Position numbers and translations under genes: made by a program. A DNA stretch of 59,576 nucleotides from a virus. Shown piece by piece: positions 17,686 to 59,576 of this stretch. Positions within the stretch are counted from its first letter, which is position 1. Each line of letters starts with the position of its first letter. The stretch lies in IMG/VR virus record IMGVR_UViG_3300045988_178550, positions 1-59,576 of that record. The stretch is one strand, 5' to 3'. The notes beneath the pieces were generated by a model. The model searched no databases, was not told the DNA's origin, and was given only the letters and a program-made list of their open reading frames with translations.

Positions 17686-17699
17686 TATAATTCCTCCTT

Positions 17700-17942
17700 T
17701 TATCGCAATATTTTAATACTTTTATATTCTTTCATGTTTAAGTTACGTTCAGGACTAGACAGAATGCAGAATATTAAATCTTCCATTGTAATTTTACTTG
17801 GTAGGTAGGTTTTTAATAATTGTTGGAGCATTTTATCAAATTCAGATTTTTTAATAAAACATGTAATGTATGTCTTATCTCCTTTGTATAGTTGTACTTT
17901 TAAAACAATAACATCAACTTTATCTAATGGTACTACTTGCAT
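17700..17942 (-). CDS. hypothetical protein
   Basis: 80-aa ORF. Confidence 0.5.
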   Translation of the reverse strand: MQVVPLDKVDVIVLKVQLYKGDKTYITCFIKKSEFDKMLQQLLKTYLPSKITMEDLIFCILSSPERNLNMKEYKSIKILR

Positions 17943-18283: not shown

Positions 18284-18286
18284 TTC

Positions 18287-26162: not shown

Positions 26163-26486
26163 TCACTTTGCAACCAAACATAAACGAATATTCTTTTCAA
26201 AGCATTCATTCAACAATTCAAAATTTACATCCATACTTTCCAATTGAAGTACAGCATCACCTTCACGATTGATTCGTAAAGTTTTGAGCCTTGTTTTACC
26301 AATAATGCCTTTTGTTCCTTCACCATTGTCAGCTTGTGTTTTGATATCATTATTTAAAAGCATTACAACGTTGATATATTTTGCTAACTCAGAAGCTGGG
26401 AAAACAAATTTCAAAGTTGTAATTCCACTTTTATTGGTATTACTCCCATCATAAGTACAAGCTAAAATCAATTTCTTTTCATCCAT
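26163..26486 (-). CDS. hypothetical protein
   Basis: 107-aa ORF. Confidence 0.5.
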   Translation of the reverse strand: MDEKKLILACTYDGSNTNKSGITTLKFVFPASELAKYINVVMLLNNDIKTQADNGEGTKGIIGKTRLKTLRINREGDAVLQLESMDVNFELLNECFEKNIRLCLVAK

Positions 26487-26983
26487 TTTCTTTCTCTCCT
26501 TTTTTTAAACACATCACTTAATGTTGATGGTTTTTGTTTTTGATTGTTTTGTATTTTTGATTCTTCTATAATTTCATCAACCGTTAATTTCCCTTTACCT
26601 TTTATTTTTGTAATAGGTTTTTGTTTATGTTTTACAATTTCTATAGGTTTTGCTTTTTCAAACTCCTGCCCTTTTAAATACTTTGATAAATTTTCAAGTT
26701 CTGCAGGAACAGTAGCAATAAGCATTGGCCCATCAACAAATTGTACAACAAAAATAGGAATTTTTCTATCAACAGTTGCATGATATAAAAGCTTTTCAAC
26801 ATCTAATCGTTTAAATGATACTTGATTAGATTCTGTGCTTTTTAATTGGCAAATTATATCATCATTATATCCATCTTCTTTTAATATTTCTCCTGCACCA
26901 CTTCTTGGTGTAGATTTTAGTCCAAGTTTTTCAATTACTTTTCTTTCATTTGCATACCAGAATTTTGAAGTCCTACGTTTCAC
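26468..26983 (-). CDS. PD-(D/E)xK nuclease, Hjc-like Holliday junction resolvase-like
   Basis: NERKVIEKLGL..TPRSGAG...DDIICQLKST layout resembles archaeal-type resolvases. Confidence 0.45.
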   Translation of the reverse strand: MKRRTSKFWYANERKVIEKLGLKSTPRSGAGEILKEDGYNDDIICQLKSTESNQVSFKRLDVEKLLYHATVDRKIPIFVVQFVDGPMLIATVPAELENLSKYLKGQEFEKAKPIEIVKHKQKPITKIKGKGKLTVDEIIEESKIQNNQKQKPSTLSDVFKKRRERKWMKRN

Positions 26984-27524
26984 GATTCAAAATTGCTCCT
27001 TGTTTAAGTGGATATAATGAAATACAAATTGCATCAGCCATATCATCATTGCCTTCAACATCAAAATCAAATTCATTTTTAATAAATTCAATTGTTTCTA
27101 ACTTTTTATTTGACGTTTTATGTTTTGATGTTCCAACAACTTTTGACTTCCAGCTCCTTGTATCAACAGAATAAACAGGAATGTCAAAAGTAAAAGCTAT
27201 ATCAACAATAGAAGCAATTAGAGCACCAGTTGCTGATATATAACTTTTTGAAATAAATCCTTGTGAAAATGTTCTAATTTTCTCACAAATTATAATTTTA
27301 GGATGATAATTTAAAATCAAACTTTTTACAACTTTTTTCACAGCATTACGTTTTTCTGTTTTTGTTTTCATTTTTTTAAAATCTATACTATCAGCATATA
27401 ATAATTTCCCATTTTCCGTTACCGCAATACCTGTTCTTGTATAACTTTCATCAATTCCAATTATAGGATATTGCAATGCATTTTTAATATATTCTAATTC
27501 TTCTTTATTTTTAATTTTAGCCAT
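26973..27524 (-). CDS. RuvC-like crossover junction endonuclease
   Basis: IIGIDESYTRTGIAV N-terminal catalytic Asp/Glu and C-terminal DDMADAICISL. Confidence 0.65.
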   Translation of the reverse strand: MAKIKNKEELEYIKNALQYPIIGIDESYTRTGIAVTENGKLLYADSIDFKKMKTKTEKRNAVKKVVKSLILNYHPKIIICEKIRTFSQGFISKSYISATGALIASIVDIAFTFDIPVYSVDTRSWKSKVVGTSKHKTSNKKLETIEFIKNEFDFDVEGNDDMADAICISLYPLKQGAILNRET

Positions 27525-27967: not shown

Positions 27968-28750
27968 TTATAATTTTTCTTTCCTAATTCCAAAACATGT
28001 ATCTGACATTGGACAATCCTGTGCCCTTTTGCATGTTAAACTTCCACATTTGCGTTTCACCAGTTTTCCCTCTGATAAAAGTTTGTCCTTATATGTGGAT
28101 ATTTTATATAACCTTTCCAAATAGGGCCTTACAACATTAAAGTCATAATCATAGGCCAATATTTTTATCTCCTGTGTATTTTTGTCTTCACATAAAACGA
28201 ATCCTTGAGGTATACAAGTAAAATGCATATATAATTGTAATTGTTTTGTCCCTTTTGGATGAGTATCTTTTAAATGTTTAAATGCAAAAGTATTCATTGA
28301 CTTAATTTCACAAACATAAAACTTACCATTAATTTTAACAATTGCATCAGGAGTCATATATAAATCCAATGATTTTGAATAGCCCCTATCTTCAATTGCT
28401 ACAGCAATTCCTGCATTCTTAAACATCCTCTGCCATTTTTCATGAATTGCTTCACCTTCACGAAATATTCTTGCTAAGCTTACCGACATTTCTTCCTTTT
28501 CAGCCTTATTCCTTTTGTATACTAAACTAAGGACCTGTTCCCTATAACAAAAATTATTTTCACTATCAATGATTGCTGAAGCATGTAAACCTTTTCTGTC
28601 TTCATCCTCTTTTGACTTAACAAAAAATAATGAATTTAATTTATTTTCAAGCATTAAAGATAATGTAGATGATGGTTCAACTTTAATCCTGCTCCTTTTT
28701 ACTGCATCTGCAATCGCTGCACTTTTATTCATCATCTTCATCCTCCTCAA
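27968..28750 (-). CDS. Cas4/RecB-family PD-(D/E)xK exonuclease
   Basis: YVCEIKS core, one N-terminal Cys and a C-terminal CGSLTCKRAQDCPMSDTC cluster (4-Cys Fe-S layout). Confidence 0.65.
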   Translation of the reverse strand: MRRMKMMNKSAAIADAVKRSRIKVEPSSTLSLMLENKLNSLFFVKSKEDEDRKGLHASAIIDSENNFCYREQVLSLVYKRNKAEKEEMSVSLARIFREGEAIHEKWQRMFKNAGIAVAIEDRGYSKSLDLYMTPDAIVKINGKFYVCEIKSMNTFAFKHLKDTHPKGTKQLQLYMHFTCIPQGFVLCEDKNTQEIKILAYDYDFNVVRPYLERLYKISTYKDKLLSEGKLVKRKCGSLTCKRAQDCPMSDTCFGIRKEKL

Positions 28751-29666
28751 CTTCTGCTCTTAGCCTTTTTAGCTCCTGATTCCTTTGCTTCATAATTTCT
28801 TTTCTAATTTGTGGAACATCATCAACAGGGACAAATCCCCTATCAAAAACAATTGCCAATGTACATTCCCCTAAAGGATTGCAAACTTTACTTTTTATAA
28901 CTTTTACCTTCATAATCATACCAATAATTTCTTTTGCTGCTGAGTTCGCAGGATTCTTATTCGGTACTTCAATCCAACTCATTCTATTCACTTGCAACCT
29001 AATTGAAGCAAAATGTTTTAATGCCCTACCACCAGGTGTATGAGTTTGAGGACCAAATAATCCTGCCTTCATTTCATCTCTCAATTGATTGATAAAAATT
29101 ACTGTTGTTCCAGATTGCTCACATAATGTTACAAGTTTTGGAAGTTTTGCAGCTAATAATGCAGCAATTCTGCCACGTTGGCCTTCCTTCTCCATGTCAT
29201 CTTCTTCGAATTCTTTCCTCGTTATCATTGAAGGAACAGAATCTATAACAACCAATGGAACATTTGCTTTTGATACTTCTTGGATTGTTTCCATGCATTG
29301 TTCTCCATATTCACATCTACGAATAAACAACTGCCCCTTTTTATTTCCAAATATTTTAGCCCTTTTAGCATCAAATGTCCCTTCAATAGGAATATCAACA
29401 GCAACTTCATGTTGAGCAAGTAAATGATATGCCAATGTAGTTTTTCCTGCGGATTCAGGCCCAAACAATTCAATAAACCTGCCATAGGGAATTCCACCAC
29501 CAAGTATATTGTCTAAATCTTCTAATCCTGTAGACCATCTATCAACAACAAAAGTTGACTTTTCAGAATCCAATGAAAAAATGCTTCCAACACCATATTC
29601 CTTTTCAAATGCTTTTAATGTTGCTACTAATTTCTTTTTATCGATAGCTTTAGCCATCATTAACAC
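28725..29666 (-). CDS. RecA-family recombinase
   Basis: GGIPYGRFIELFGPESAGKTTLA Walker A, VVIDSV Walker B, TTVIFINQLR. Confidence 0.8.
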   Translation of the reverse strand: MLMMAKAIDKKKLVATLKAFEKEYGVGSIFSLDSEKSTFVVDRWSTGLEDLDNILGGGIPYGRFIELFGPESAGKTTLAYHLLAQHEVAVDIPIEGTFDAKRAKIFGNKKGQLFIRRCEYGEQCMETIQEVSKANVPLVVIDSVPSMITRKEFEEDDMEKEGQRGRIAALLAAKLPKLVTLCEQSGTTVIFINQLRDEMKAGLFGPQTHTPGGRALKHFASIRLQVNRMSWIEVPNKNPANSAAKEIIGMIMKVKVIKSKVCNPLGECTLAIVFDRGFVPVDDVPQIRKEIMKQRNQELKRLRAEVEEDEDDE

Positions 29667-32366
29667 CTACCTTACTTGAATTTCCCTATGGTATATTTTT
29701 CTATTCTCAATTATTACTTGTTTCTTCCTTACATTTTCATTAAATTCTAATGCACCTGCATCAATCAATGCCTTAACAACCCTAGCATTACAAGTCCTTT
29801 TTTCATTTTTATCTTCAAAATCAGGTTTATCAAGGTATGGCCCATTTTTAGCAATTGCTTCCGCTGCCTTTTCACCAACACCTTTAATTGTTGTTAGCCC
29901 CCTTGATATGCATTTACCACCAAACATTTCAACTGCACCATAATTTGCTGTCCCATTAACATGCGGTGGAAGTATTACAATTCCTGCTTTTGATGCCTCT
30001 GTTTCATATACTGCTAATTTTTGTTCATCAGATTCATTTTGTAATGTTATCAACCAAAATTCAAATGGATAATGCACTTTGTACCACATTTGTTGAAAAC
30101 TTAATAAACAATATCCAACTGCATGACCTTTGTTAAATAAATAACCATTTAACATACTTTCAAATAAATCACTATATTCTTTCTTTGAATATTCTTTGTT
30201 TACTTTTCTTGCATGTTTTAAGAATTTTTCCCTTATTCCACCAGGCCCAAAAATAATTTGCCTTTTTTGAATGTTATCATTACTATGTAAGTCAAGTCCT
30301 TTCATTAGCATTTCTGCTTCTTCCCAATCAAGTCCACCTAATTGAGTACATATTCTCAAAATATCTTCCTGATACACGAAACATCCATACGTTTCAGGTA
30401 AGTATTTTGCTGCAATATAATCAGCATTTTCATTATTATTTTTAGCATTTGCAAATTGTTCTGGCATTCCACACCCTAATGGACCAGGCCTATTCAATGC
30501 GGATACTGCAGCAACATCAGCAAAATTTGTTGGTTTAATTAATTCAAGAATTCCTTTTGCTCCAGCTTTTTCATACTGGAATACTCCATTTGTATCACAT
30601 TCCCTAAATGCTTTTATAACTTTTTTATCAGTTAACATCTTTTCATCATATTTTGCACCTGTTAACTTTTCTAATTGTTTAATAATTGATACAGTCCTTA
30701 AGCCTAAAATATCCATTTTTAATACTTTAAGAACATGTAAATCATTTAAATCAAAACAACTTTGATAATTACTTCTAACCCTTATTAAAGCAAATTGGTC
30801 AGTTAATTTCCCACAAGTTATAGCAACTCCACCTGCATGCCTTCCCATAAAACGTATTTGACGATAAAATTTATAGAACAATGTTACTACTCCTGTTTCA
30901 TCATCAATTTGCCTTAACTTTTTATTGTTTAATAATGGCTCAAGCTCAATATCAATGCCACCCATTGCAGTAATACTTGGATATACGACTCTGATTTCTT
31001 TTTTCATAATATCCATGTATTCTTTTGGCAAATCCTCTCTGACCCTAAATAAATCATTGATTAGATTGTCTGCTTTATATAATCCATAAGTTGTTATTTG
31101 TGCTGTTCTCCCTTTATATCGATTGTGGATATAATCAATAACTTCTTGCCTACGTTCTGACTCAAAATCCATATCAATATCAGGCATTTTATGTTTACCT
31201 GGTCTTAAAAACCTTTCAAACATTGTACCTTGCTGGATAGCATCAACATCAGTAATTCCTAAAGCATAAGCAATAATGCTCCCACAAACAGATCCACGAC
31301 CATGTCCATAACCAATATCATTCTTTTTTGCAGATGCAATAATGTCCCAACAGAGAATGAAATAATCTTCAAAACCTAAATCAAAAATAATGCTTAATTC
31401 ATATTTTGCTCTTTGAATATACTCCTTGTTCCACTTACCTTTTGCTTTCAATCCTTCCTTAATAAGCCTTTTAATTAATGTTTTTGTGTCCTCACCATAA
31501 TCGACTTTCGGAATATCTTCAACAAACAAATTGTCTAAATCAACATTACATTTTTCAACAATTTCTGCCGTATTTTTTAAAAGCGGAATTGCACTCCTTT
31601 TATGCCTTTTTTCAAACCTTGCTTTTACTTCATTTTCTGATGGCATGTAACGAGATGAATAATCAGCATACATTGTACGATTGCCAATCTTATACATTAA
31701 TTGATATGCTTCATAATCTTCAGGTTTTATAAAATGACTATCAGTTGTTATAATTGGTTTATATTTATATTTATCACAAATCTTTAAAAGCACATTATCA
31801 ACTTTTAATTGAATATCATTCCCATTATCATCAACAACTTTGTATGGCATTATTTCAATATATAAATCATCACCAAATATTTGTTCTAAAAGCCTAATTC
31901 TTTTTAATGCTTTTTTATTATCATTTTCAAGAATTGCACTTGATGCTACTCCTGCTAAACATGCAGTAGAACAAATTAGCCCTTCATGATACTTTTTTAA
32001 CAATGCCATTGTAACAACTGGTTTACGATAAAAATTTTCAACATTTGCAGCTGTCATCAACCTCATTAAATTTTGATATCCAATTTTATCTTTGCAAAAT
32101 AAGCACATGTGATAATATCTTTTTTCTTTATCAAATTTCGGTTGAAAATAAATTTCACAACCTAAAATTGCTTTAATTCCAACATCCTTACAAGCTTCAT
32201 AATGAGCAACTAATCCTGATATGCTACCATGTTCAGATATTCCCAGTGAAGTTAGCCCTAATTCATTTGCATATCTTGCTGCATCCTTTTGTCTCCCAAA
32301 TCCATCAAATAAACTAAATTCTGAATGTCTATGTAAGTTTGTCCATCCATACATTATCTTCTCCAC
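29667..32366 (-). CDS. dnaE: DNA polymerase III alpha subunit (DnaE-type, PHP domain), short form
   Basis: N-terminal PHP motif LHRHSEFSLFDG...ISEHGS; palm/fingers region conserved; 899 aa. Confidence 0.85.
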   Translation of the reverse strand: MEKIMYGWTNLHRHSEFSLFDGFGRQKDAARYANELGLTSLGISEHGSISGLVAHYEACKDVGIKAILGCEIYFQPKFDKEKRYYHMCLFCKDKIGYQNLMRLMTAANVENFYRKPVVTMALLKKYHEGLICSTACLAGVASSAILENDNKKALKRIRLLEQIFGDDLYIEIMPYKVVDDNGNDIQLKVDNVLLKICDKYKYKPIITTDSHFIKPEDYEAYQLMYKIGNRTMYADYSSRYMPSENEVKARFEKRHKRSAIPLLKNTAEIVEKCNVDLDNLFVEDIPKVDYGEDTKTLIKRLIKEGLKAKGKWNKEYIQRAKYELSIIFDLGFEDYFILCWDIIASAKKNDIGYGHGRGSVCGSIIAYALGITDVDAIQQGTMFERFLRPGKHKMPDIDMDFESERRQEVIDYIHNRYKGRTAQITTYGLYKADNLINDLFRVREDLPKEYMDIMKKEIRVVYPSITAMGGIDIELEPLLNNKKLRQIDDETGVVTLFYKFYRQIRFMGRHAGGVAITCGKLTDQFALIRVRSNYQSCFDLNDLHVLKVLKMDILGLRTVSIIKQLEKLTGAKYDEKMLTDKKVIKAFRECDTNGVFQYEKAGAKGILELIKPTNFADVAAVSALNRPGPLGCGMPEQFANAKNNNENADYIAAKYLPETYGCFVYQEDILRICTQLGGLDWEEAEMLMKGLDLHSNDNIQKRQIIFGPGGIREKFLKHARKVNKEYSKKEYSDLFESMLNGYLFNKGHAVGYCLLSFQQMWYKVHYPFEFWLITLQNESDEQKLAVYETEASKAGIVILPPHVNGTANYGAVEMFGGKCISRGLTTIKGVGEKAAEAIAKNGPYLDKPDFEDKNEKRTCNARVVKALIDAGALEFNENVRKKQVIIENRKIYHREIQVR

Positions 32367-33307
32367 CTTTGCGTAAATTTTTCAACAAATTGTGGACATT
32401 GCAGCATATCCTTTTGACCTGCCTTGTATAAAATTTCATTTGCAATAATGTTCATATGATTACTTGTACGATACTTATTATCTTTACAATGTTGTTTAAA
32501 CATTTCACTATTTGCAAATAAATCAAATCTTCCCTTTTTAGTAGCATCAACAAATGCTTTATAAATTTTTGCTTGTTTCTTCCATTCTTTCAAATTATTA
32601 CAATTGTATGTTAATACTTCTTCAGAATTCTTCATCATTTCAAAAATTTCAAAATTTTCTTGATAAACATGAAGGCTTCCAACTTGATGAACATAAGTAC
32701 CAACATTAACACCTAATGAATTTGCAATAACTTCTTGAATGTTTGTAAAATTATAAATATCATAAGGCATTCCAAGTATTGCATCATTAGACCTCATTGT
32801 AACAATCAAATGTAGTTGATTATCACGAAGCATAAATTGTAAAGCAATTGTGCAAGGAGTATCATGACCAGAATAGTTTAACAAATCACATTCATGGCTA
32901 TAAATTGTTAAAACTGCTTGCCTTGTATCTTTATCTTTTCTTATTTTATCAACAATTGTTTGAAGTCCTTTAGCTATACGATATCCATAAGCTCCATGCA
33001 TTGTCATTCCATCATCACTAAATAAACCCATTTTTGAATTAAATGCCGTAAAATACTTTAACTTATCTTCTTTTAAAGCAAATAATAAAGATTCAATTGT
33101 TGCGTATACAATACTAAATTTTCTTTCAGGTAAATATGCCAATCTACTTCTTGGATTAGTTAAAACAATTTGAACTGCGGGAAGTTCTTTTGTAACTTTC
33201 CCTCTTGGATTCACATTAAATGCATCAACGAATTGTGTATTTAATTCTTTATATAATTCAGCAACACTTGAAACAATGATACTCATTTCATTCACCTCAA
33301 TTTTCAA
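32354..33307 (-). CDS. ThyA-fold pyrimidine dNMP hydroxymethylase/methylase, predicted dCMP-specific
   Basis: Catalytic Cys in HDTPCTIALQF. MRSNDAILGMPYDIYNF aligns to TS QRSCDVFLGLPFNIASY, with Asp replacing the uracil-specifying Asn, as in T4 gp42. Confidence 0.65.
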   Translation of the reverse strand: MKIEVNEMSIIVSSVAELYKELNTQFVDAFNVNPRGKVTKELPAVQIVLTNPRSRLAYLPERKFSIVYATIESLLFALKEDKLKYFTAFNSKMGLFSDDGMTMHGAYGYRIAKGLQTIVDKIRKDKDTRQAVLTIYSHECDLLNYSGHDTPCTIALQFMLRDNQLHLIVTMRSNDAILGMPYDIYNFTNIQEVIANSLGVNVGTYVHQVGSLHVYQENFEIFEMMKNSEEVLTYNCNNLKEWKKQAKIYKAFVDATKKGRFDLFANSEMFKQHCKDNKYRTSNHMNIIANEILYKAGQKDMLQCPQFVEKFTQRWRR

Positions 33308-34145
33308 TTATTTCTTCAATTATTTCTTTTAAACATAATTGCTTGTCTTTAATATTCCTTTTGCATTCATATAGCATACTTTTTACAAAATCAACATTTC
33401 CTGGCATATTACAATAATTCATCAAATGCTTTGCTTCACGACCAGTTTGTACTCTAAAAAATCCAGGAATTTTAAAATGATTATCAGCATCATATGATAT
33501 ATCAACAACCGGAACAGATCCCATTGAAATGCATTCAACATATCTTGATGTTACCCAATTATATTTTGTGTATAAATCCCTTGCAATAATTAAATGATAT
33601 TTATATGCCATTGCAGTATCATAATACTTATCGTATGAAAGCCTGTTGTCAACATTTCCATGTTTAACAAAACATTGCATAAAACATTCATCATGATATT
33701 TCTTTAATGTAATGTCACGCCCATCATTTAATCCACCACCAAAAAATAAAACATCTTTGTATATTTTATCAACAACTTTATTATATTTGAAAAATAATTC
33801 AGGAACATAATTATATGAATAATTTTTTAGCCAATCATATTTACTTGGTAAACAATGAAATTGTCCTAAAACATAATCACACAATCCAACTATTTTGCTA
33901 CATTTGTCTAAACAATATAAGTCTGTTGCAATAAAAATTTTTGTCATTTTACTTGCTTGCAACATTTCACTTAGTTGCTCATTTTCCTTATCTGTGATTG
34001 CACCACCAATGAGTATAATTACATCATCAATATTTTTGACTCCTTTAAGTGCATCTACAATCAACAAATATTCATAATATCCACTATTTACATCTGCATT
34101 ATTTCGATAATAATCTAAACCTAATTTTTTAATCATCATTATCAC
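33297..34145 (-). CDS. putative DNA (hydroxymethyl-base) glycosyltransferase, T4 beta-glucosyltransferase-like
   Basis: DVLFFGGGLNDGRD and HLIIARDLYTKYNWVTSRYVECISMGSVPVVD parallel T4 BGT DVIYGGSFRSGQRE and ALIIGDKNYNDNFITLRVWETMASDAVMLID (from memory). Confidence 0.4.
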   Translation of the reverse strand: MIMMIKKLGLDYYRNNADVNSGYYEYLLIVDALKGVKNIDDVIILIGGAITDKENEQLSEMLQASKMTKIFIATDLYCLDKCSKIVGLCDYVLGQFHCLPSKYDWLKNYSYNYVPELFFKYNKVVDKIYKDVLFFGGGLNDGRDITLKKYHDECFMQCFVKHGNVDNRLSYDKYYDTAMAYKYHLIIARDLYTKYNWVTSRYVECISMGSVPVVDISYDADNHFKIPGFFRVQTGREAKHLMNYCNMPGNVDFVKSMLYECKRNIKDKQLCLKEIIEEIIEN

Positions 34146-34650
34146 CTGCTTTTAACCATGCAACAATATCCACTAATGTTGACCAATCACAAAATATCGT
34201 TTTCAATTTCAATTTATTACAATATTTCTGAAATAATTCATCATGTTGGCTTTGATTTTTCCCATTTAATGATGCTGACAATTCAATGTTTGCAGGTTTA
34301 ACATATATGATTGTTATATCAATTTTTTCATTTTTCTGCTCTTCAATCAATTTATTATGAATGATATTAAAATATTCATCAACATAATCCCTATTTCTTT
34401 CAATTGCAGAATAAACAACCTCAGTTAAGAAAAATCTATCACAAATAACATTTAAATCTAATTGTTTAACAACTTCAATGAATGTGAACGTCTTTTCAAC
34501 AACAGAAATTAGATTGCTATGATTGTGGTCATAATATCCATGGTCCTTGTATATATGCATTCCTGTTTCATTACTTAAAATTTTTGCAAGTGTTGTTTTT
34601 CCAACCCTATCAATTCCTTCAATTGCGATTATTTTAGCCATTATTTTCAC
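34129..34650 (-). CDS. dNMP (thymidylate-type) kinase
   Basis: IAIEGIDRVGKTTL P-loop typical of Tmk-family kinases. Confidence 0.7.
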   Translation of the reverse strand: MKIMAKIIAIEGIDRVGKTTLAKILSNETGMHIYKDHGYYDHNHSNLISVVEKTFTFIEVVKQLDLNVICDRFFLTEVVYSAIERNRDYVDEYFNIIHNKLIEEQKNEKIDITIIYVKPANIELSASLNGKNQSQHDELFQKYCNKLKLKTIFCDWSTLVDIVAWLKAGDNDD

Positions 34651-35295: not shown

Positions 35296-36129
35296 TTATC
35301 TCCTACGTTTCATTCTTGATTTGTTGGCTACTGAAGCTTTAGCTTTTTTCTTAGGAGGAGGCAATTCATCTTCTTCTTCGTCCTCCTCCTCATCTTCATC
35401 CTCATCTTCATCTAAATCTTCATCATAGTCATCATCCTCTTCATCTTCTTCTTCATCTTCAATTTCATCTTCATCGTCTTCATCTTCATCATAATCATAT
35501 TTCTTAGAAGGCTTTACTTTTTGTTTTCGTTTTCTTGGTGTTTCATCCTCTTCTTCTTCACCAATACGTTCAATGTATTCTTCAACTGTTTCTTCTTCAC
35601 TTACCGTATTAAATGCTGCAAACAACATTTCAAACATTTTCTTTTTAGTAAACGGTTTAACATTTGCAGTGAATTTAGTGATTTTCCCTGTAGGAATAAC
35701 AGCATAACTTGTATCTGTTCCTGTACCATTTCTTTGGATTACCATATCCTGAGAAACAATATCACCAAGTGTCTCATAAACCGCTCCAAGTGCAGGTAGT
35801 GGAGTTGACCTTGCAGCTTTAAAGAAAAATAATTCTTGTTGTTTTGTTTCATAATTATAAACCGGCCAACAATAATGTGATTGTGTTCTTACATCACTAT
35901 CTGAAGTATCACAGTTAGGACATTCAACCCCTTTGTATCTCAAACAAGGATGTTGAAAACCTTGCCATTTTGTATGCATTACAACTTCAATACCATCTTC
36001 AAAATCAACTAAGAACCTTACCCTTACCTTGTCTCCTGCTTTCTTAATACCAAACAGGTTTTTGAAATTGCCTCCTGATTTTGCAATATCAGATTTGATT
36101 GCATCAAGAATGCTTCTTTTTTCTGTCAT
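35296..36129 (-). CDS. gp32-like ssDNA-binding protein with a long acidic tail and basic terminus
   Basis: HPCLRYKGVECPNC Zn-ribbon-like His/Cys cluster, OB-like core, about 70-aa D/E tail, then PPPKKKAKASVANKSRMKRRR. ATGA overlap with primase. Confidence 0.5.
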   Translation of the reverse strand: MTEKRSILDAIKSDIAKSGGNFKNLFGIKKAGDKVRVRFLVDFEDGIEVVMHTKWQGFQHPCLRYKGVECPNCDTSDSDVRTQSHYCWPVYNYETKQQELFFFKAARSTPLPALGAVYETLGDIVSQDMVIQRNGTGTDTSYAVIPTGKITKFTANVKPFTKKKMFEMLFAAFNTVSEEETVEEYIERIGEEEEDETPRKRKQKVKPSKKYDYDEDEDDEDEIEDEEEDEEDDDYDEDLDEDEDEDEEEDEEEDELPPPKKKAKASVANKSRMKRRR

Positions 36130-37049
36130 TTGTTTTCTTCCTTTCGTATTTGTTTTTTGATATTCATCCAACAATAGTTGAAATGAAATTTATCTAAGTC
36201 ACCAATATCTTTTATTGAATTTGGTAACTTAAATCGAATTACATCAAAATATTGTTTTAAGTATTCTGTTCCCTTTTCACCAGTTGGAGTATTATCTAAT
36301 GCAGATATTATTTTTGTGATTCCTTTTTGTTGAAGTTTTGAAATTTGTTCATCAGTTATTTTCCAACCAAGAATTGCAACTGAATTCTTAATTCCAAATT
36401 GTTGTAATTTTAACCAGTCCATATAACCTTCAGTTATTACAACATAATCATCAAAATAATTTCCAACCAATGTTCTTCTTCTACTAAAACCAAAGTTATA
36501 TAAATACTTCCTATCACTTGGAACAACTGCTCTTGATACATACCCTTTAAATTTTCCGTTATCAACCATTGGCATAATGATTGGATATGTATCATTATAA
36601 TTAATTCGAATATCACATTCTTGCATTACTTTTCTTGTGAACCCTCTTTTCAACATATACTTTAAAGCAGCTGTTTTCTTTTCATGTTTCCAATCCACAG
36701 TTGGTAAACTATAAAAGTAAATTTTTGCATCGTTTAAAGCTTCTTTATTTGTTTTTTTAGTTGATTGTTTTATAGTAATATTTTGTGTTTGTTTATTATA
36801 TATTATTTTATTATATATTATTATCGCTTTCAACGGAGAACATTTTTCAATTCTCCTAACGAATTCCAAAATATCACCTTTTGCTCCACAACCATAACAA
36901 TAAAAGTAATCTTTGTCAATATTTACTTGTAAGCTTGGTTTATCATCCCCATGGAATGGACATTTTATCTTGACCTTATCATAAACAGTATCATCAATTA
37001 GCTTGTAATGATATAAAACTTTTGCAAAATTTCTTGTTGGCTCATCCAT
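36126..37049 (-). CDS. dnaG: DnaG-type primase (CHC2 zinc finger + Toprim)
   Basis: CPFHGDDKPSLQV..YCYGCGAKGD zinc finger; ITEGYMD and SALDNTPTGEKG Toprim motifs. Confidence 0.8.
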   Translation of the reverse strand: MDEPTRNFAKVLYHYKLIDDTVYDKVKIKCPFHGDDKPSLQVNIDKDYFYCYGCGAKGDILEFVRRIEKCSPLKAIIIYNKIIYNKQTQNITIKQSTKKTNKEALNDAKIYFYSLPTVDWKHEKKTAALKYMLKRGFTRKVMQECDIRINYNDTYPIIMPMVDNGKFKGYVSRAVVPSDRKYLYNFGFSRRRTLVGNYFDDYVVITEGYMDWLKLQQFGIKNSVAILGWKITDEQISKLQQKGITKIISALDNTPTGEKGTEYLKQYFDVIRFKLPNSIKDIGDLDKFHFNYCWMNIKKQIRKEENK

Positions 37050-40771: not shown

Positions 40772-41071
40772 CTATTGTTTTTGCAATAGGAGCTCAATAT
40801 ATGGTTTTACTTCGTCCGGAATTAATTCCTTTTCATTGCTAATAATGGTTTGTAATTCCTTTTTGGCATTCCATAAGGCTTTGCCTACTGAAGAACTTTC
40901 AATTCCTAAGTCGTCGGCTATCTCATAATATGATTTACCCTCAATATAAAACTTCCATAAAAGTAATTCACTTTTTGTTTTCAAGCCAGTCCCTTTTATA
41001 ATCACCTTTAGTGCAATTAAAGATAACGTTTTAAGTCTTTTATTGAAATCTGATTCAGTCATTAGCTCCAA
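40772..41071 (-). CDS. sigma-70 region-4-like HTH protein (candidate late regulator)
   Basis: ELLLWKFYIEGKSYYEIADDLGIESSSVGKALWNAKKEL fits the region-4 pattern. Confidence 0.55.
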   Translation of the reverse strand: MELMTESDFNKRLKTLSLIALKVIIKGTGLKTKSELLLWKFYIEGKSYYEIADDLGIESSSVGKALWNAKKELQTIISNEKELIPDEVKPYIELLLQKQ

Positions 41072-41435
41072 ATACCCGCCAAGCTGTTATAATTCCTCCA
41101 ACTAGACCACCTATAATTAAAGTTAGTATTGTATTGACAATTACTCTCTTATAATTATAGTAGTCCTTTAAATCTTTCATTTGATATTCTTCAAAATCTC
41201 GTTTTAAAGAACCTATACGTCCATGGAGAATTTCTTGATCTTTATTTAATCTAGATTCTAATTTATCAAATAATTTTAAAATAGTAACGACATTAAAGTT
41301 TATCTCTTGCACATCTTTACAGGTTTGACGGAATTGTTCTTCAAATAATTCTGACCGTTTTTCGTATCTATCACAACGGCTTTCTAAAGTTTTAATCCTT
41401 TGTAATAGTTCTGCAATTACCTTTTCATTTTCCAT
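41055..41435 (-). CDS. XhlA-like coiled-coil protein with C-terminal TM
   Basis: N-terminal heptads, C-terminal TILTLIIGGLVGGIITAW; PBSX XhlA architecture; lysis module. Confidence 0.45.
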   Translation of the reverse strand: MENEKVIAELLQRIKTLESRCDRYEKRSELFEEQFRQTCKDVQEINFNVVTILKLFDKLESRLNKDQEILHGRIGSLKRDFEEYQMKDLKDYYNYKRVIVNTILTLIIGGLVGGIITAWRVFGAND

Positions 41436-41778: not shown

Positions 41779-42198
41779 CTAGGATATCGCAATTAATAAA
41801 ACAGTACCAAGTCCAATATACAATAAAGTTTTTTCAGCTTTTAATTGTTTAATCTTCTTTTTGTATTCTTTGGACTCCTGTTCTAAAGTCTGATTGCAAC
41901 TCTCTAAGTATTTGATTTTGTTGTCGTAAGATGTCTTCAACATCGTTTGCTGTTTTTCCAATGTTATTACTGACTGATTGGCTTTCTGTAAGTTGTTGTT
42001 TAATTCCGTCCGTTGTTTTTTCAACGTCAGAATTTTGTTTATCGATTGTTCGTTTAGGGATATCGCTTGCGCTATTTGTTGTTCTTGCATTTCGAATTTC
42101 TTCGCTGGAACTAAATAATAATCCTGTGCATAAGCCTGCTGACATAAACCCAATGGTAAACCAAACAACAAAAGCATGAAAAATATTTTTCTTTTCAT
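41779..42198 (-). CDS. signal-peptide, coiled-coil, C-terminal-TM protein (spanin-like architecture)
   Basis: MKRKIFFMLLLFGLPLGLCQQAYA-Q signal (AxA), Q/K-rich coil, LLYIGLGTVLLIAIS anchor; stop overlaps the next SD. Confidence 0.5.
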   Translation of the reverse strand: MKRKIFFMLLLFGLPLGLCQQAYAQDYYLVPAKKFEMQEQQIAQAISLNEQSINKILTLKKQRTELNNNLQKANQSVITLEKQQTMLKTSYDNKIKYLESCNQTLEQESKEYKKKIKQLKAEKTLLYIGLGTVLLIAIS

Positions 42199-42331: not shown

Positions 42332-42874
42332 TCAATTATTTTGTTTCCAGATTGCCAATCCACGAATTACATCGCCGCCGGGCTGATCTTTTCTACCTGT
42401 TCCGGGATCGTCTAAAAGAAGTAAATCCCATCTTAAATCCGGATCATTACCATAAAGACCATAACCATCAATATTAGCGATTTCTGCATGAGTCATAACA
42501 TGCTCCGAATCTATTGGAATTTCTAGAACAGTTGCTATAAAACAAATTACCTCAGCTAACCGTTCGACTTGAATTGGTGTTGGTGGATAACCATTCCAAT
42601 TAATTCTTTCAGGATATTTGTAAACAGTCGCCCCATAAGCACAACATAAAGCGATTCCAATAGCATTGCTGTTTCGATGCCATGTATGCTCTTTGTAGTC
42701 TGTAAGTTCACCATTAATACGAACAGTTCCATCACTTTCAATACAAATATGATAATGTTCTTTTTCAACACTATTCATTTTGTATAATCCACCTGTATGA
42801 TGACAATAGATTCGATTAATACCATTATTTTTAGCCCTTTCGGCAAGTGCAATGATTTCATTTATTGTTGTCAT
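42332..42874 (-). CDS. N-acetylmuramoyl-L-alanine amidase (Amidase_2/PGRP) endolysin, catalytic domain only
   Basis: IYCHHTGG, HTWHRNSNAIGIAL, MTHAEI motifs; start at ATG 42874 (AGGAGGA SD). Confidence 0.75.
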   Translation of the reverse strand: MTTINEIIALAERAKNNGINRIYCHHTGGLYKMNSVEKEHYHICIESDGTVRINGELTDYKEHTWHRNSNAIGIALCCAYGATVYKYPERINWNGYPPTPIQVERLAEVICFIATVLEIPIDSEHVMTHAEIANIDGYGLYGNDPDLRWDLLLLDDPGTGRKDQPGGDVIRGLAIWKQNN

Positions 42875-43187
42875 TAGTATTGTCCTCCTTTTCTTCAAGA
42901 ATATCTGCTATGCCATTTTGATTTTTATCAATAAATAATTTTGCTAAAAATGTAATGGCATAAACAGTCGACCCACTTACAAAAAAGGTCAAGAATGAAA
43001 TGATTATTGGCAAGTCTGCCTCGTTTGTTACTTTTAGGTTGTGTATCCAACCATAAACAAACATTGCAGTAAAGCCGAGATACACCATTATAAGGTAGAA
43101 AGCTATATACTTAATGTATTTATTCCCTATTAATTGTGGTGTATTTTCAACTAATTTTTTAAACCAATTAAGTATCTTGTCTTTCAT
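42858..43187 (-). CDS. holin-like membrane protein
   Basis: 109 aa with 2-3 TM segments and a charged C-terminus, immediately upstream of the endolysin. Confidence 0.6.
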   Translation of the reverse strand: MKDKILNWFKKLVENTPQLIGNKYIKYIAFYLIMVYLGFTAMFVYGWIHNLKVTNEADLPIIISFLTFFVSGSTVYAITFLAKLFIDKNQNGIADILEEKEDNTNDNNK

Positions 43188-43201: not shown

Positions 43202-43230
43202 ATTATAATACATTATTTTTATTTTGTCAA
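43202..43230 (-). promoter_or_regulatory. perfect consensus sigma70 promoter (TTGACA-N17-TATAAT)
   Basis: Minus strand TTGACA at 43230-43225, 17-nt spacer, TATAAT at 43207-43202; leader to the holin ATG would be only about 8-10 nt. Confidence 0.55.
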
Positions 43231-43232
43231 AC

Positions 43233-43267
43233 CACCATAGGAGCTAGCTTAGAGGCTAGTATTCCTA
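43233..43267. repeat. left arm of a perfect 35-bp inverted repeat
   Basis: CACCATAGGAGCTAGCTTAGAGGCTAGTATTCCTA; the exact reverse complement is at 43952-43986. Confidence 0.95.
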
Positions 43268-43623
43268 CGACTGAAACATATTTAGTCAATATCAATGAAG
43301 ATTACACCACAGTAAACGAAACGAGAACAGTTCATATTCCATCAGGCGTTAAAGTATTAAAAGTAAGAGTCTATTCCGAAAGTGGTGCAGGTGGAGATGA
43401 TTTCTGTGCTGCATATGTTCAAAATGCCGACAATAAGAAAGTTTGGGTAATTGCTGAAAACTATGGTTCTTGTGATGAAACTAAATATGTCGGCGTAACA
43501 GGCGGGAAAGATTATAAATTAAATTTATATGCTGGCACTGAATATGATACAATGGCAGCATTAATACGAATTTCATATTCACAGTCGATTAATAATACAA
43601 CTCCCCGTGTAACAGATTATTAG
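43233..43623 (+). other. start-less (silent) paralog cassette D, inverted relative to all other genes
   Basis: Encodes TIGASLEASIPTTETYLVN...ISYSQSINNTTPRVTDY but lacks the MALTDNPM head, SD and ATG; the upstream part of track ORF 43114.. is antisense to holin. Confidence 0.8.
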
Positions 43624-44033
43624 TAATCTGTAACTTCTACTGCGTGTGAATTGATAGTAGGCGACCATTCGAGTTTAAAATTCAACTTAGTGTAATCAGT
43701 ATTAACATCTAAATTGCCTATAGTATAATCAATCCAATATTTATTATTGTTAGCATTATACAACAAGTATTCTTCACCTTCTCCATAATTATATTCAGTC
43801 CAATTAGAATACAATTTATAGGATTTATTGGGTGTTACACCTACATACGTAATCAAACTTAAATATCCAGATTGATTAAATGAAGCCCTTAATACTGTTA
43901 TTCCTGCGGGAACTGTAAAGGTACTGCCATGTGCTAAAGTAACTTCCCCACTAGGAATACTAGCCTCTAAGCTAGCTCCTATGGTGACATTGCCTGTCAC
44001 GATAATTGACATTGGATTATCAGTTAAAGCCAT
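43620..44033 (-). CDS. cassette-family protein C (expressed copy at the invertible locus)
   Basis: MALTDNPMSIIVTGNVTIGASLEASIP head, divergent body, VTDY end; stop overlaps the stop of cassette D. Confidence 0.7.
   Translation of the reverse strand: MALTDNPMSIIVTGNVTIGASLEASIPSGEVTLAHGSTFTVPAGITVLRASFNQSGYLSLITYVGVTPNKSYKLYSNWTEYNYGEGEEYLLYNANNNKYWIDYTIGNLDVNTDYTKLNFKLEWSPTINSHAVEVTDY
43952..43986. repeat. right arm of the perfect 35-bp inverted repeat
   Basis: TAGGAATACTAGCCTCTAAGCTAGCTCCTATGGTG on the plus strand. Confidence 0.95.
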
Positions 44034-44054
44034 AATATACGGCAGATTTTGAGT

Positions 44055-44474
44055 TTAGTAATCGGTTACTTTAGGCGTTTGATTGTTAATTGATTGTGAA
44101 TAACTAATAGTTACACTTCCTGACTCTGTGCCAGTTTCGCTATCAGTTGATAACTTTAATGTATAACTTTTATTAGGAGTAACTCCTACATACCAAATAT
44201 CATAGGCGGATTCGTAATCCCATAAAGATAACCAATATTTTTTGCCATTTACTGAATATACATCTAAAGCTACTTCGCCTTCGTGTTCATGGTATACATC
44301 ACCCTCTACTTTTAATACTTTTACACCCGCAGGCACTGTAATAGTAACCGTTGTATTCACATCCATAGTACTCAACAATCTTGTTTCAGTAGTCGGTACA
44401 CTTGCTTCTAATGTTGCCCCAACTGTTACATTGCCTGTAACCACTAAACTCATAGGATTGTCTGTCAAAGCCAT
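44055..44474 (-). CDS. cassette-family protein B
   Basis: Start at ATG 44474 (GGAGGAAAAAG SD): MALTDNPMSLVVTGNVTVGATLEASVP...ISYSQSINNQTPKVTDY. Confidence 0.7.
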   Translation of the reverse strand: MALTDNPMSLVVTGNVTVGATLEASVPTTETRLLSTMDVNTTVTITVPAGVKVLKVEGDVYHEHEGEVALDVYSVNGKKYWLSLWDYESAYDIWYVGVTPNKSYTLKLSTDSETGTESGSVTISYSQSINNQTPKVTDY

Positions 44475-44509
44475 CTTTTTCCTCCGATTTCTCACAGAGG
44501 AATATTACA

Positions 44510-44989
44510 TTAATAATCAGTTACGTTAGGTATTTTTTGATTAATTGATTGAGAATAAGAAATCTTTAAATACCCTCCACCCAAATTATATTCTGCGCCT
44601 ACGTATAACGATAATTTATAAGTTTTGTTTGGTGTTACTCCGACATACCATTGATCATAGAAATTAAAACCCTCTGATCTATAACGCCACTCTTTTTGAT
44701 TAGAAAGGTTTTTTATTTCTACAGTAACGTAATCATCATAACCCTCGCTAGATTCTGCATGACTGGAAATATATAATACAGTAACTCCATCAGGAATAGT
44801 TATTGATACTTCCTCATACAAGATGTCATTTGCTTCAATATTTTTGTTGATCAAGAAAGTTTCTTCTGTAGGCACAATAACTTCTAATTCTGCACTAACC
44901 GTAATATTCCCTGTGACTGTAATATTCATAGGATTATCAGTTAGTGCGTGTAATTGTAATAGTAATCTCGGAAGACGGCTGACAGACAA
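44510..44989 (-). CDS. cassette-family protein A; start ambiguous (TTG 44989, or ATG 45033 after a +1 change in the G tract)
   Basis: ..LHALTDNPMNITVTGNITVSAELEVIVP...ISYSQSINQKIPNVTDY; the family ATG position is CAC here. Confidence 0.6.
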   Translation of the reverse strand: MSVSRLPRLLLQLHALTDNPMNITVTGNITVSAELEVIVPTEETFLINKNIEANDILYEEVSITIPDGVTVLYISSHAESSEGYDDYVTVEIKNLSNQKEWRYRSEGFNFYDQWYVGVTPNKTYKLSLYVGAEYNLGGGYLKISYSQSINQKIPNVTDY

Positions 44990-45004
44990 TTCTTTATCTG
45001 CCTG

Positions 45005-45014
45005 CCCCCCCCCC
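45005..45014. repeat. C10/G10 homopolymer
   Basis: Ten consecutive C on the plus strand, counted directly; longest G/C run seen in this AT-rich genome. Confidence 0.95.
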
Positions 45015-45034
45015 TAATTAATTTATTAAACATT

Positions 45035-45310
45035 TTATTCGTCCTCCTTATTTACATCAATTTTTTCTAAAAGCTCTCCATCTTTGTTATAACCAGTGAT
45101 TATAAGATTTTGACCTTTTTTAACTAAAATACTATAAGGTGAATTTGCTTTTACACTAAAAGAATATTCACCACTTGCAACAAAATCAAGATTCGCATAA
45201 CTGTCTAATGTGTTTGATAATTTAGCACATTTTTCATTTAGTTCTTTTTGCATATCTTCATATTCCGATTTTGTTTTCCCGCCTAATAATTTTATCAACC
45301 AATTAAACAT
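45035..45310 (-). CDS. hypothetical protein
   Basis: 91 aa; N-terminus MFNWLIKLLGGK resembles the MFNKLIRGGG leader of cassette A. Confidence 0.5.
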   Translation of the reverse strand: MFNWLIKLLGGKTKSEYEDMQKELNEKCAKLSNTLDSYANLDFVASGEYSFSVKANSPYSILVKKGQNLIITGYNKDGELLEKIDVNKEDE

Positions 45311-45914
45311 CTTCGTCCTCCTTTTCTAATACAGCTCCAATTTCAGCATCGCCATTTATTGCTAATGTATTTGCGCTTGCAGTTTGATAGCTTCCTGACA
45401 ATGTAAATGTCTTAAAGGTGTATCCACTATTCGGCGTACACAAATTGCTTGCAGTTTTGCCATGCTGAACAGTAAAGGTTGACGTATATGCAACACCATC
45501 AACTGTAACAGTAATCGTTCCACCTGTAGGCTGATTAATCGTATAAGTATAGGTTTTCAAGGTAGCGGCTGTTGCACTAATAGTGATATTATCTGTCAAT
45601 GTTCCACTTGTACTGCTTAATGTGCCTGCATTATAACCTGTACTTGCTGATATACTTGCCGTATAAGTTGACCCTGCTTCTGCTGTAAATGTTGATGTAT
45701 ATGAATTGCCATTGCAAATTACTGTTATTGTTTGATTTGCTGATTGTACGATTGTGACCGTTACTGTTACTTCGGACGTGTAACATAATCTTGCTACGCC
45801 ATTTACTCCTATATACATTTTTTTGACTTTTCTTGCCTTGCCGTCTACTCCAATGTATATATTCTTTGCTTTTCTTGCTTTACCATCTACACCTATATAA
45901 ATGCTTTTTGCCAT
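45303..45914 (-). CDS. fibre-associated protein with a triple N-terminal repeat and Thr-rich beta repeats
   Basis: KSIYIGVDGKARKAK / NIYIGVDGKARKVK / KMYIGVNGVARL, then YTSTFT-type repeats. Confidence 0.55.
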   Translation of the reverse strand: MAKSIYIGVDGKARKAKNIYIGVDGKARKVKKMYIGVNGVARLCYTSEVTVTVTIVQSANQTITVICNGNSYTSTFTAEAGSTYTASISASTGYNAGTLSSTSGTLTDNITISATAATLKTYTYTINQPTGGTITVTVDGVAYTSTFTVQHGKTASNLCTPNSGYTFKTFTLSGSYQTASANTLAINGDAEIGAVLEKEDEDV

Positions 45915-59141: not shown

Positions 59142-59566
59142 AGGCTTAACCTCTGTGTCCACTTCACAAAAGATTGTTTAAACCGTGGGGGAATCTCCCT
59201 ATTTATCTCAGCTAAACTTATCCTTGCCATGTGATATCCTTCAACATATTTTCCTTTATCGCCTTTTACCCTTTTTCCATCTTCGCCTCTACTCCATTTA
59301 TAAGCTTGATGTCCTTCTTCAACATAACTTGCATATTCAGCAGAATTTGTTAAATATATAACTAATTGGTTTCCATCCCTTTCAACATCAGAGACTTGCC
59401 AACTATTTCTTAAAAATCCTGTTCTTACTGGTGTTCTTTTTTTTGTTTTAGCTAATGCCCTTAATCCCATTTCCAACAAAAATTGATTCAAAAAATCTAA
59501 AAATTCTTGTTGCATTTTAAGAACATTTTCCACCATTTGAATTACACCATCACTAGTAAGACCCAT
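59138..59566 (-). CDS. HK97 gp10-family neck protein
   Basis: RTPVRTGFLRNSW motif of the gp10 family; start ATG 59566 lies in the terminal overlap next to gene 118..528 on the closed circle. Confidence 0.6.
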   Translation of the reverse strand: MGLTSDGVIQMVENVLKMQQEFLDFLNQFLLEMGLRALAKTKKRTPVRTGFLRNSWQVSDVERDGNQLVIYLTNSAEYASYVEEGHQAYKWSRGEDGKRVKGDKGKYVEGYHMARISLAEINREIPPRFKQSFVKWTQRLSL

Positions 59567-59576
59567 AATCAACACC
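59436..59576. repeat. terminal direct repeat, identical to 1..141
   Basis: Exact 141-bp match read directly. Confidence 0.9.

Follow-up and report, generated by a model that had tools for sequence, protein, structure and literature searches.

A candidate phase-variable array of receptor-binding tip cassettes with two DNA switches in an uncultured gut myovirus

Introduction

Mu (G segment, Gin), P1 (C segment, Cin), e14 (Pin) and p15B (Min) all possess an invertible tail-fibre segment flanked by short inverted repeats inside the coding sequence, and its inversion connects an unchanging 5' coding part to different 3' parts. These alternatives are arranged tail to tail, and the protein that is switched functions in host recognition. 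The inverted repeats of the Mu G segment are about 34 bp long, and crossover sites of the hix/gix type consist of 26 bp with two imperfect half-sites around a 2-bp core. Here we describe a locus that shares this layout in a stretch of viral DNA of 59,576 nucleotides (nt) (IMG/VR record IMGVR_UViG_3300045988_178550, the whole of which we call the window), where four related cassettes, A to D, lie between positions 43,233 and 45,033. We propose, at a probability of about 0.7, that these cassettes make up a set of phase-variable tip modules for receptor binding, located where the tail operon ends and controlled by two DNA switches, one an inversion and the other a poly-G tract. Neither the invertible C/D switch nor the poly-G gate of cassette A had been seen in a preliminary description of the window, which drew attention to the constant ends and variable centres of the cassettes.

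Comparison with Mu-type systems reveals both shared and distinct features. The repeat found here measures 35 nt, against about 34 bp in Mu. Unlike in Mu, P1, e14 and p15B, no invertase gene was found in the closed genome, and the repeat bears no resemblance to gix or hix. In addition, the switched unit is a head of ~110 residues alone, not a fibre C-terminus with a chaperone gene, the switch lies within an array of paralogs having their own starts, and the phage that carries it is an uncultured gut virus that looks virulent. The R64 shufflon (PilV/Rci) likewise selects alternative C-terminal segments of an adhesin tip by inversion within the coding sequence. Unlike that system, which serves a conjugative pilus, the phage locus contains only one invertible segment and lacks both an Rci-type tyrosine recombinase and 19-bp sfx-like repeats; the genome has a single repeat pair, and Pfam and PHROG scans detected no Phage_integrase domain.

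Hypermutable poly-G tracts are known as contingency loci in phage genes, for example in Campylobacter phages and T2/T4 (PMC10877375, PMC12633550). As in those loci, the G run described here lies at the 5' end of a host-recognition-type gene and varies naturally in length, shifting the reading frame; a frame-shifting tract with length polymorphism between identical flanks suggests that the gate of cassette A belongs with them. Unlike at other poly-G loci, the gene gated here is one of several cassettes in an array that is also switched by inversion, and distant relatives have the tract at the same position just upstream of the adaptor peptide, even inside fused stem-head genes.

The design of the proteins also has parallels. 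In phages with several receptor-binding proteins, such as those with K1-5/SP6-type adaptors or CBA120-type tailspike sets, these proteins share an N-terminal attachment module and diverge in their distal parts. The cassettes similarly combine a conserved N-terminal docking module with divergent distal parts, but here the adaptor is ~27 residues long and appears to come from a stem-repeat strand, and the choice between modules is genetic and not only a matter of co-display. The BppL protein of Tuc2009/TP901-1 and the trimeric heads of the C1q/TNF type appear to resemble the predicted fold of the cassettes, a small all-beta jelly-roll at the tip of a stem, in which the loops on the far side vary and the termini, on the near side, are conserved. 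Unlike in those proteins, with which there is no sequence similarity and a template modelling (TM) score of about 0.4, the head of the cassettes is a separate polypeptide with a disordered adaptor, seen as a monomer model. Proteins with InlB-B-repeat (Flg_new_2) stems that end in a cassette domain offer a further comparison, in which the gene of this phage would be split into stem and head. A thorough catalogue exists of gene-altering inversions in the tail fibres of prophages (PMC9881135), and it was not until 2026 that putative invertons were first described on metagenome-assembled gut viral genomes (PMC13501310). The locus follows known kinds of switch, built on an unnamed protein family, and is not a categorically new mechanism.

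Results

A 35-nt inverted repeat brackets the alternative bodies C and D

The preliminary description had placed cassettes A (44510-44989), B (44055-44474) and C (43620-44033) in tandem on the minus strand, with D inverted relative to them, and the open reading frame (ORF) list agreed. The outer coordinates given there coincide with the left arm of the inverted repeat (43233) and with the ATG of the true leader of A (45033). Cassette D, on the plus strand, is cassette-like only from about 43231/43233 to 43623; the reading frame upstream of it is antisense to the next gene, so D has neither a start nor an N-terminal peptide of its own. C and D lie tail to tail, with overlapping stop codons, between the two arms of the repeat (Table 1), and inversion of 43233-43986 would thus put the body of D in frame after the first 16 codons of C. 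The repeat sits in codons 16-27, within the N-terminal peptide shared by the cassettes, and in D it is the first cassette-like stretch.

Apart from the 35-nt pair, the 59.4-kb genome contained no exact repeat, whether direct or inverted, of more than 19 nt. Identity between C and D is 100% over the repeat, 0% outside it on the side of the constant N-terminal part and 34% just inside it. B and A encode nearly the same peptide at this position with a DNA identity of only 63% and 57%, respectively. Because A and B have drifted this far over the equivalent codons, the identity of the C/D repeat appears to be far above what coding constraint explains, and far beyond chance. The boundaries of the repeat were sharp and identical in every related locus, across two outer flanks and three bodies, and it finishes with a small internal dyad, TAGGA...TCCTA.

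The alternative arrangement was found in nature. In one related genome (L128), exactly positions 43233-43986 were reverse-complemented between collinear flanks of 98.7% identity, and a database protein of 145 amino acids (aa), P0164, is the fusion of the constant N-terminal part to the body of D. Hybrids of the leader of A with C are also on record (P0133, P0135). The suggestion in the preliminary description that conserved DNA ends provide substrates for cassette shuffling thus gained direct support from inversion at the 35-nt repeat and from hybrid and deletion variants.

Opposite orientations occur in nearly identical segments

Loci with the repeat were collected from IMG/VR (15) and from metagenomes (30). 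Over 46 related loci, each of two segment types was present in either orientation. Among segments of the C/D type, with a 684-nt interior, C was expressed in 16 loci and D in one; among those of a C/E type, with a 633-nt interior and a fifth body, E, six loci expressed C and nine expressed E. Once orientation was normalised, segments in opposite states proved to be closely similar: L006 (E on) and L118 (C on) differed at 1 of 633 nt, L104 (E on) differed from L103 and L116 (C on) at 2 nt, and L128 (D on) differed from L102, L117 and L129 at 6 of 684 nt. Opposite orientations in such near-identical segments suggest that flips are repeated and recent and that orientation is polyphyletic. A comparison of related contigs for body diversity, as had been recommended at the outset, yielded both orientations, the fifth body E and 197 alleles of B.

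The silent bodies were intact in all cases (31/31). D, silent in 16 of 17 genomes and intact in each of the 16 silent copies, showed a ratio of nonsynonymous to synonymous polymorphism (pN/pS) of 0.21; such a value for a body that is silent in most genomes suggests that D is regularly exposed to selection. Moreover, three independent contigs ended exactly at the inner edge of the repeat, as an assembler does at a branch, which suggests mixed orientations within samples.

Apparent larger inversions of the shufflon kind in L127, L107/L108 and L119 were rejected, proving to be deletions at microhomology or chimeric short contigs. L107 and L108 lacked the whole invertible segment, the left arm running directly into the end of the right arm at a TCCTA common to both, and in L127 the left arm was joined to the middle of B; these three joins are either real microhomology deletions or assembly artefacts.

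A poly-G tract gates cassette A

Cassette A has no ATG at the start of the shared N-terminal peptide, where it reads HALTDNPM, and the database proteins P0137 and P0143 run from an ATG at 45033-45031 through a run of G into A. A ribosome-binding site, AAGGAGGA, lies 9 nt upstream of this ATG, within the end of the 91-aa gene. A direct repeat (45025-45045 and 45302-45322, 81% identity) covers the ribosome site, the ATG and the codons for MFNKLI in the leader and MFNWLI in the 91-aa gene; the initiation signals of the leader seem to have arisen by local duplication.

The length of the tract varied between identical flanks. Counted by distinct contig (about 33), there were 7 G in three, 8 G in 11, 9 G in 13, 10 G in three and 11 G in three, such that A was in frame in 14 contigs (8 or 11 G) and out of frame in 19 (7, 9 or 10 G), where a stop follows after 12-30 codons. 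G runs of 7-10 were present in distant relatives at the same place, just before the adaptor peptide, in some of them inside a fused stem-head gene (...NAGG followed by RINSNMTFSAS...), and the leader motif LQLHA was kept at the protein level in these relatives.

The cassettes belong to one unnamed family

Alignment of the four copies with MAFFT gave identities of 42-50% to A and 27 invariant columns; A, B, C and D are paralogs of one unnamed family, with identities of 42-52%. The invariant columns reproduced the shared motifs that had been listed previously (ALTDNPM..VTGN.T.GA.LE..P, T.P.GV.VL, YVGVT..K.Y.L and SYSQSIN...P.VTDY). The altered order of segments in C was also found again, with the NKYW strand after YVGVT and not before it, and this order recurs in cassette E, in the copy of a Dialister prophage and in P0417. 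To call the central residues unrelated was an overstatement, since the bodies are divergent but homologous and were all recovered by one hidden Markov model.

That the family lies outside any named domain was borne out by the searches: A-D gave zero matches in Pfam, PHROG and NCBIfam, and no significant match in a PDB sequence search. A tblastn search of the cassettes against GenBank phages found no match, and a DNA search of phages with cassette sequence found just two fragments of 60-70 nt. A profile search of 1.8 billion representatives recovered 301 family members at 50% clustering. Cassette B alone accounted for more than 1,500 clusters at the 90% level in public data, nearly all of them from human-gut assemblies, which makes this a common phage of the human gut. 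Further homology searches were crowded by near-identical B alleles or gave 10 matches, and the depth of the alignments was limited.

Among the 197 alleles of B, residues 1-31 and 121-139 were invariant, and variation was concentrated at positions 32, 37-39, 57, 61, 85-91 and 111. The pN/pS of B was 0.75 in loops chosen after the fact versus 0.28 elsewhere, a comparison that is not a valid test of positive selection but hints at relaxed or diversifying pressure, or at mosaic import.

A diversity-generating retroelement was considered as the source of the hypervariability and rejected; the window holds no reverse transcriptase, and the element of a related locus (L155; IMGVR_UViG_3300029231_000005, 1-1529) targets another gene. 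There, a reverse transcriptase of the retroelement type, with IGNYLSQ and YCDD motifs, is encoded just upstream of a seven-gene cassette array, and a template/variable-like repeat pair (333-375 and 6-48) differs at adenines, with the variable copy in a gene beyond the edge of the locus, outside the cassettes.

Predicted fold and a candidate stem carrier

Structure prediction covered monomers. From a 22-sequence alignment, AlphaFold2 modelled B with a mean predicted local distance difference test (pLDDT) score of 86.6, residues 1-20 being disordered and residues 28-139 forming an eight-strand sandwich (pLDDT about 95). Prediction for each copy, which the preliminary description had advised, thus gave a confident sandwich for B, whereas C was modelled with low confidence in its rearranged region. 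The variable positions of B would sit, in this model, at the end of the sandwich opposite the termini. The top Foldseek match in the PDB was the Tuc2009 BppL receptor-binding protein, and the TNF-like domain of Chlamydia Pgp3, C1q/TNF heads, the Bdellovibrio Bd2133 fibre tip and the lambda tail tip were also matched, all weakly (E 2e-3 to 1e-2, TM 0.37-0.49). Against viral models (BFVD), the matches were collagen-like proteins, a "C1q domain containing protein", host specificity protein J and tail fibre proteins, again weak (E 6e-5 to 3e-3). Although weak, the fold matches appear to be consistent in direction.

Domain architecture seems to provide stronger evidence for a role at the tip than these fold matches. 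In P0270, P0288, P0287, P0289 and P0297, the cassette domain is C-terminal to InlB-B-repeat (Flg_new_2) stems, and in P0270 and P0288 Flg_new_2 scored above its curated threshold and was followed by the cassette domain in the same chain. The 203-aa protein encoded upstream of the cassettes, which consists of a triple N-terminal YIGVDGKARK repeat and then two InlB-B-repeat-like domains, matched residues 157-299 of P0270 (BLASTP, E 5e-23). The N-terminal peptide of the cassettes aligns to the last strand of the P0270 stem, where the 203-aa protein also ends. A Dialister prophage encodes a fused stem-head form, then a free cassette, then holin and lysin, at the same genomic position as here. In the seven-gene array of L155, the N-terminal peptide precedes unrelated bodies of 167 and 407 aa, as would be expected for a universal adaptor. 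As a separate observation, the N-terminus of the 203-aa protein, with three tandem copies of K.IYIGVDGKARK, matches PHROG 13729 (unknown function) and could be the attachment end.

The idea that the small cassettes are receptor-binding or fibre-tip modules, put forward in the preliminary description, is consistent with the sandwich fold matches, the stem fusions, the variation in loops and the exchange of the whole block in sister phages (see below), from which, rather than from biochemistry, we infer it. The partner is more likely to be the 203-aa stem protein than the fibre proteins of 571, 393 and 288 aa, whose C-termini had been singled out there for joint structure prediction. A docking function of the constant N-terminal peptide, also suggested at that stage, would fit its disorder in the model, its invariance in 197 alleles, its presence on unrelated bodies in L155 and its homology to a stem strand.

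Search for a recombinase

No serine or tyrosine recombinase, resolvase, invertase or integrase domain was detected in the closed genome by Pfam and PHROG scans of the larger ORFs; these scans covered ORFs of about 140 aa or more, either directly or by precomputed Pfam results (tail genes), and small ORFs were inspected by eye. The flanks of the related loci also contained no serine or tyrosine recombinase domain. Inspection of the repeat by eye against the hix/gix consensus showed no such site and no half-site pair resembling AAACC..GGTTT, only the terminal TAGGA...TCCTA dyad. With no invertase gene found, a Fis-dependent recombinational enhancer would likewise have no such gene to sit in.

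Genome and neighbouring genes

The first and last 141 nt of the window (1-141 and 59436-59576) are identical, which makes the window a circularly closed assembly, the genome measuring 59,435 bp. A second assembly of the same phage has the two ends of the window joined; this and the 141-nt overlap ruled out the idea that ~6 kb of the genome is absent. Tail genes of the myovirus type were found (sheath, tube, baseplate J and Mu gp48-like), and the phage is a complete gut myovirus of 59.4 kb, apparently virulent and uncultured to date. Pfam and PHROG scans showed that it encodes DNA polymerase III alpha, primase, ThyX, RecA (28725-29666), a RuvC-like protein (26973-27524), a Holliday-junction resolvase (26468-26983) and a Cas4-like exonuclease (27968-28750).

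The promoter that abuts the left repeat arm (Table 1) would give the lysis genes, of which the holin-like gene is the first, their own transcription start, which suggests that the tail operon ends with the switch. Downstream of the endolysin, the minus strand encodes an XhlA-like ("hemolysin") protein and a 139-aa protein with a signal-like N-terminal segment and a membrane segment at its C-terminus (41055-41435 and 41779-42198), a layout like that of the PBSX lysis cassette.

Comparison with sister phages (L173-L176) points to exchange of a larger unit. Their primase is 100% identical to that of the window (36126-37049), whereas the host-recognition and lysis block is wholly different: the 571-aa fibre, 203-aa, 91-aa, A-B-C-D and Amidase_2 genes of the window are replaced by genes for a 620-873-aa fibre, a CBM_5_12 protein and an Amidase_3 lysin. 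Exchange of the whole block between phages with an identical primase suggests that the fibre-cassette-lysin block behaves as a host-range module.

A host scan of a genome collection gave weak matches or matches at the level of metagenome-assembled genomes (MAGs) only (a Bacteroidaceae MAG fragment, a Clostridium MAG, Dialister and Fusicatenibacter). The perfect sigma-70 promoter and strong GGAGG sites point to a host that uses canonical sigma-70 promoters and Shine-Dalgarno initiation, and so probably to one outside the Bacteroidota.

Other features of the genome lie outside the cassette locus. A modified pyrimidine in the phage DNA is hinted at by ThyX, a 317-aa thymidylate-synthase-like protein, a DUF1599 "nucleotide modification associated" protein and a protein like deoxynucleoside monophosphate kinases (16975-18835, 32354-34650). 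In two of the sister phages, a trio of radical-SAM, mannose-1-P isomerase-like and cytidylyltransferase genes is inserted beside the thymidylate-synthase-like gene, which may mean DNA base modification. In a 1469-aa protein (4265-8674, minus strand), a MuF head-morphogenesis domain is confined to residues 198-305, with no annotation for the other ~1,100 residues; the protein may be a fusion of MuF to extra, perhaps ejected or toxin-like, domains.

Table 1. Coordinates of the cassette locus and adjoining features in the window
Feature	Position	Strand	Basis or remark
Holin-like membrane gene (109 aa) and Amidase_2 endolysin, downstream of the switch	42332..43187	-	Pfam Amidase_2 E 6.6e-10; PHROG endolysin E 5.5e-29
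Predicted promoter, perfect TTGACA-17-TATAAT	43202..43230	-	12/12 consensus match; abuts outer edge of left repeat arm
Invertible segment, 754 bp (two 35-nt arms and 684-nt interior)	43233..43986		Reverse-complemented in L128
Left arm of perfect 35-nt inverted repeat	43233..43267		Repeat search
Body of cassette D, silent in the window: no constant N-terminal part, no start, convergent with C, overlapping stop codon	43268..43623	+	ORF list
Body of cassette C, joined to the constant N-terminal part in the window (expressed orientation)	43620..43951	-	ORF list; pN/pS 0.42
Right arm of perfect 35-nt inverted repeat	43952..43986		100% complementary to left arm; codons TIGASLEASIP of expressed gene
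Constant 5' part of switchable gene, codons 1-16, MALTDNPMSIIVTGNV, outside the invertible segment	43987..44033	-	Sequence
Cassette B, 139 aa, own ATG and GGAGG site; very polymorphic at loop positions	44055..44474	-	ORF list; 197 distinct alleles
Cassette A, present as a 159-aa TTG ORF; the full-length product of 173/174 aa, read from 45033, requires 8 or 11 G	44510..44989	-	ORF list, alignment
Poly-G tract, 10 G (C run on plus strand), putative frameshift gate for A, out of frame in the window	45005..45014	-	Length variation
Start of the leader of A (MFNKLI.), ATG 45033-45031	45015..45033	-	Sequence; P0137 and P0143 begin here
91-aa gene between stem gene and cassettes	45035..45310	-	No family match; start region duplicated as start of the leader of A
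Putative stem protein, 203 aa, likely carrier of tip cassettes	45303..45914	-	Weak Pfam Flg_new_2 match, E 0.0035

Discussion

We suggest that each cassette would consist of an adaptor peptide of ~27 residues, homologous to the last strand of an InlB-B-repeat stem, and a jelly-roll head of ~110 residues, and that the heads most likely attach, perhaps as trimers, to the 203-aa stem protein encoded two genes upstream. In the first switch, the last gene would retain its constant 5' end while its body is exchanged, C for D here and C for E elsewhere, by inversion between the 35-nt arms. In the second, A would be read from the upstream ATG through the hypermutable poly-G tract, being ON at 8 or 11 G and OFF at 7, 9 or 10 G. 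The window would then represent a state in which A is OFF (10 G), C is joined to the constant N-terminal part and D is silent. B is apparently constitutive and would diversify by allelic and mosaic variation. The outcome may be a phage population that spreads its risk over different host receptors.

Several points weigh against this proposal. The C/D orientation is strongly biased (16:1), the case for frequent flipping appears to be a comparative one, drawn from assembled genomes, and the homopolymer lengths, being taken from short-read assemblies, contain some error. There is no recognisable Shine-Dalgarno sequence in the 21 nt (44034-44054) from the stop of B to the ATG of C, and such sequences are present for the leader of A, for B and for the holin-like gene; expression of C may rely on coupling to B or run at a lower level. 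The model of C is poor in the rearranged part (pLDDT 70), and the fold matches as a whole are weak (E 6e-5 to 1e-2, TM 0.35-0.5), such that "C1q/TNF-like" denotes a resemblance only. As to the enzyme, 35 bp is short for RecA-type recombination, and a novel recombinase among the unannotated ORFs (e.g. those of 392 aa and 613 aa) is possible. Finally, receptor binding, virion location, trimerisation, docking mode and the inversion enzyme are parts of the proposal that we infer.

Which enzyme flips the segment is the part of the proposal with the strongest competitor. Our leading guess is the phage's own recombination machinery of RecA, RuvC-like and Cas4-like proteins, a host invertase supplied in trans being roughly equally probable; more broadly, we rate general recombination by the phage about equal with a host invertase or an unrecognised phage enzyme. 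Homologous recombination by the phage is favoured by rearrangements at even shorter homologies at this locus (the P0133 and P0135 hybrids and the deletions in L107, L108 and L127) and by the lack of any other repeat in the genome. The alternative, somewhat short of even odds in our estimate, holds that the 35-nt repeat is the crossover site of a dedicated site-specific recombinase, supplied by the host in trans or by an unrecognised phage protein, and it leaves the rest of the proposal untouched. The razor-sharp repeat boundaries, invariant in all loci across two outer flanks and three bodies, favour such an enzyme, as do a repeat length close to the 34 bp of Mu, the terminal TAGGA...TCCTA dyad and the presence of several unannotated ORFs in the phage. 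Invertible regions with no recombinase nearby are, moreover, already known (PMC9881135). However, neither the closed genome nor the flanks of its relatives contained a serine or tyrosine recombinase domain in our scans, the repeat is by inspection unlike sites of the hix/gix type, and the rearrangements at very short homologies seen here, including the hybrids of the A leader with C and the deletions, point to general recombination. We regard as tentative, and on balance rather unlikely, the combined idea that the inversion is programmed and reversible yet invertase-free, being carried out by the RecA, RuvC-like and Cas4-like proteins on the 35-nt repeat, and that the heads dock to the stem through their stem-derived strand of ~27 residues (strand complementation).

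A different function for the cassettes, outside the virion, appears improbable. They could be lysis or late accessory proteins (XepA/YomS-like), act in superinfection exclusion or be secreted binders of the host surface, in which case the arms race would be one other than adsorption. Consistent with such a function, the cassettes immediately precede the holin, endolysin and XhlA-like genes, XepA was among the weak fold matches (rank 43), and some homologs have hydrophobic N-termini and may be cell-surface proteins. Nevertheless, a perfect promoter lies between the cassettes and the lysis genes, homologs occur fused C-terminally to a stem-type protein where tail modules end, receptor-binding heads and fibre tips make up the better fold matches, and the block is exchanged along with the long fibre gene in the sister phages. 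Least plausible, and very improbable in our view, is passive structural polymorphism, in which D and E are leftover fragments, rare accidental recombination has become fixed and the poly-G variation is assembly noise or gene decay: the 16:1 skew in C/D orientation and the out-of-frame A of the window are in keeping with it, but all 31 silent bodies are intact with D under apparent purifying selection (pN/pS 0.21), flips separate genomes only 1-2 nt apart, the repeat is perfect while the equivalent codons of A and B have drifted to 57-63% identity, and the G tract and leader motif are conserved in distant relatives with in-frame versions common (14/33).

How uncultured gut phages keep pace with phase-variable hosts is an open problem, for which the phase-variable tip array proposed here offers a concrete and very common test case. 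It would comprise small receptor-tip modules that share a universal adaptor and belong to a family without a name, and two separate DNA switches in one array with no recognisable invertase. If inversion needs only general recombination, the search for programmed viral inversions would change, because a nearby recombinase is the usual criterion. The adaptor-plus-head design may also lend itself naturally to the retargeting of phages, as a scaffold. Should the heads bind receptors, the orientation of the segment and the state of the tract in metagenomic reads would give a direct readout of phage-host dynamics in people.

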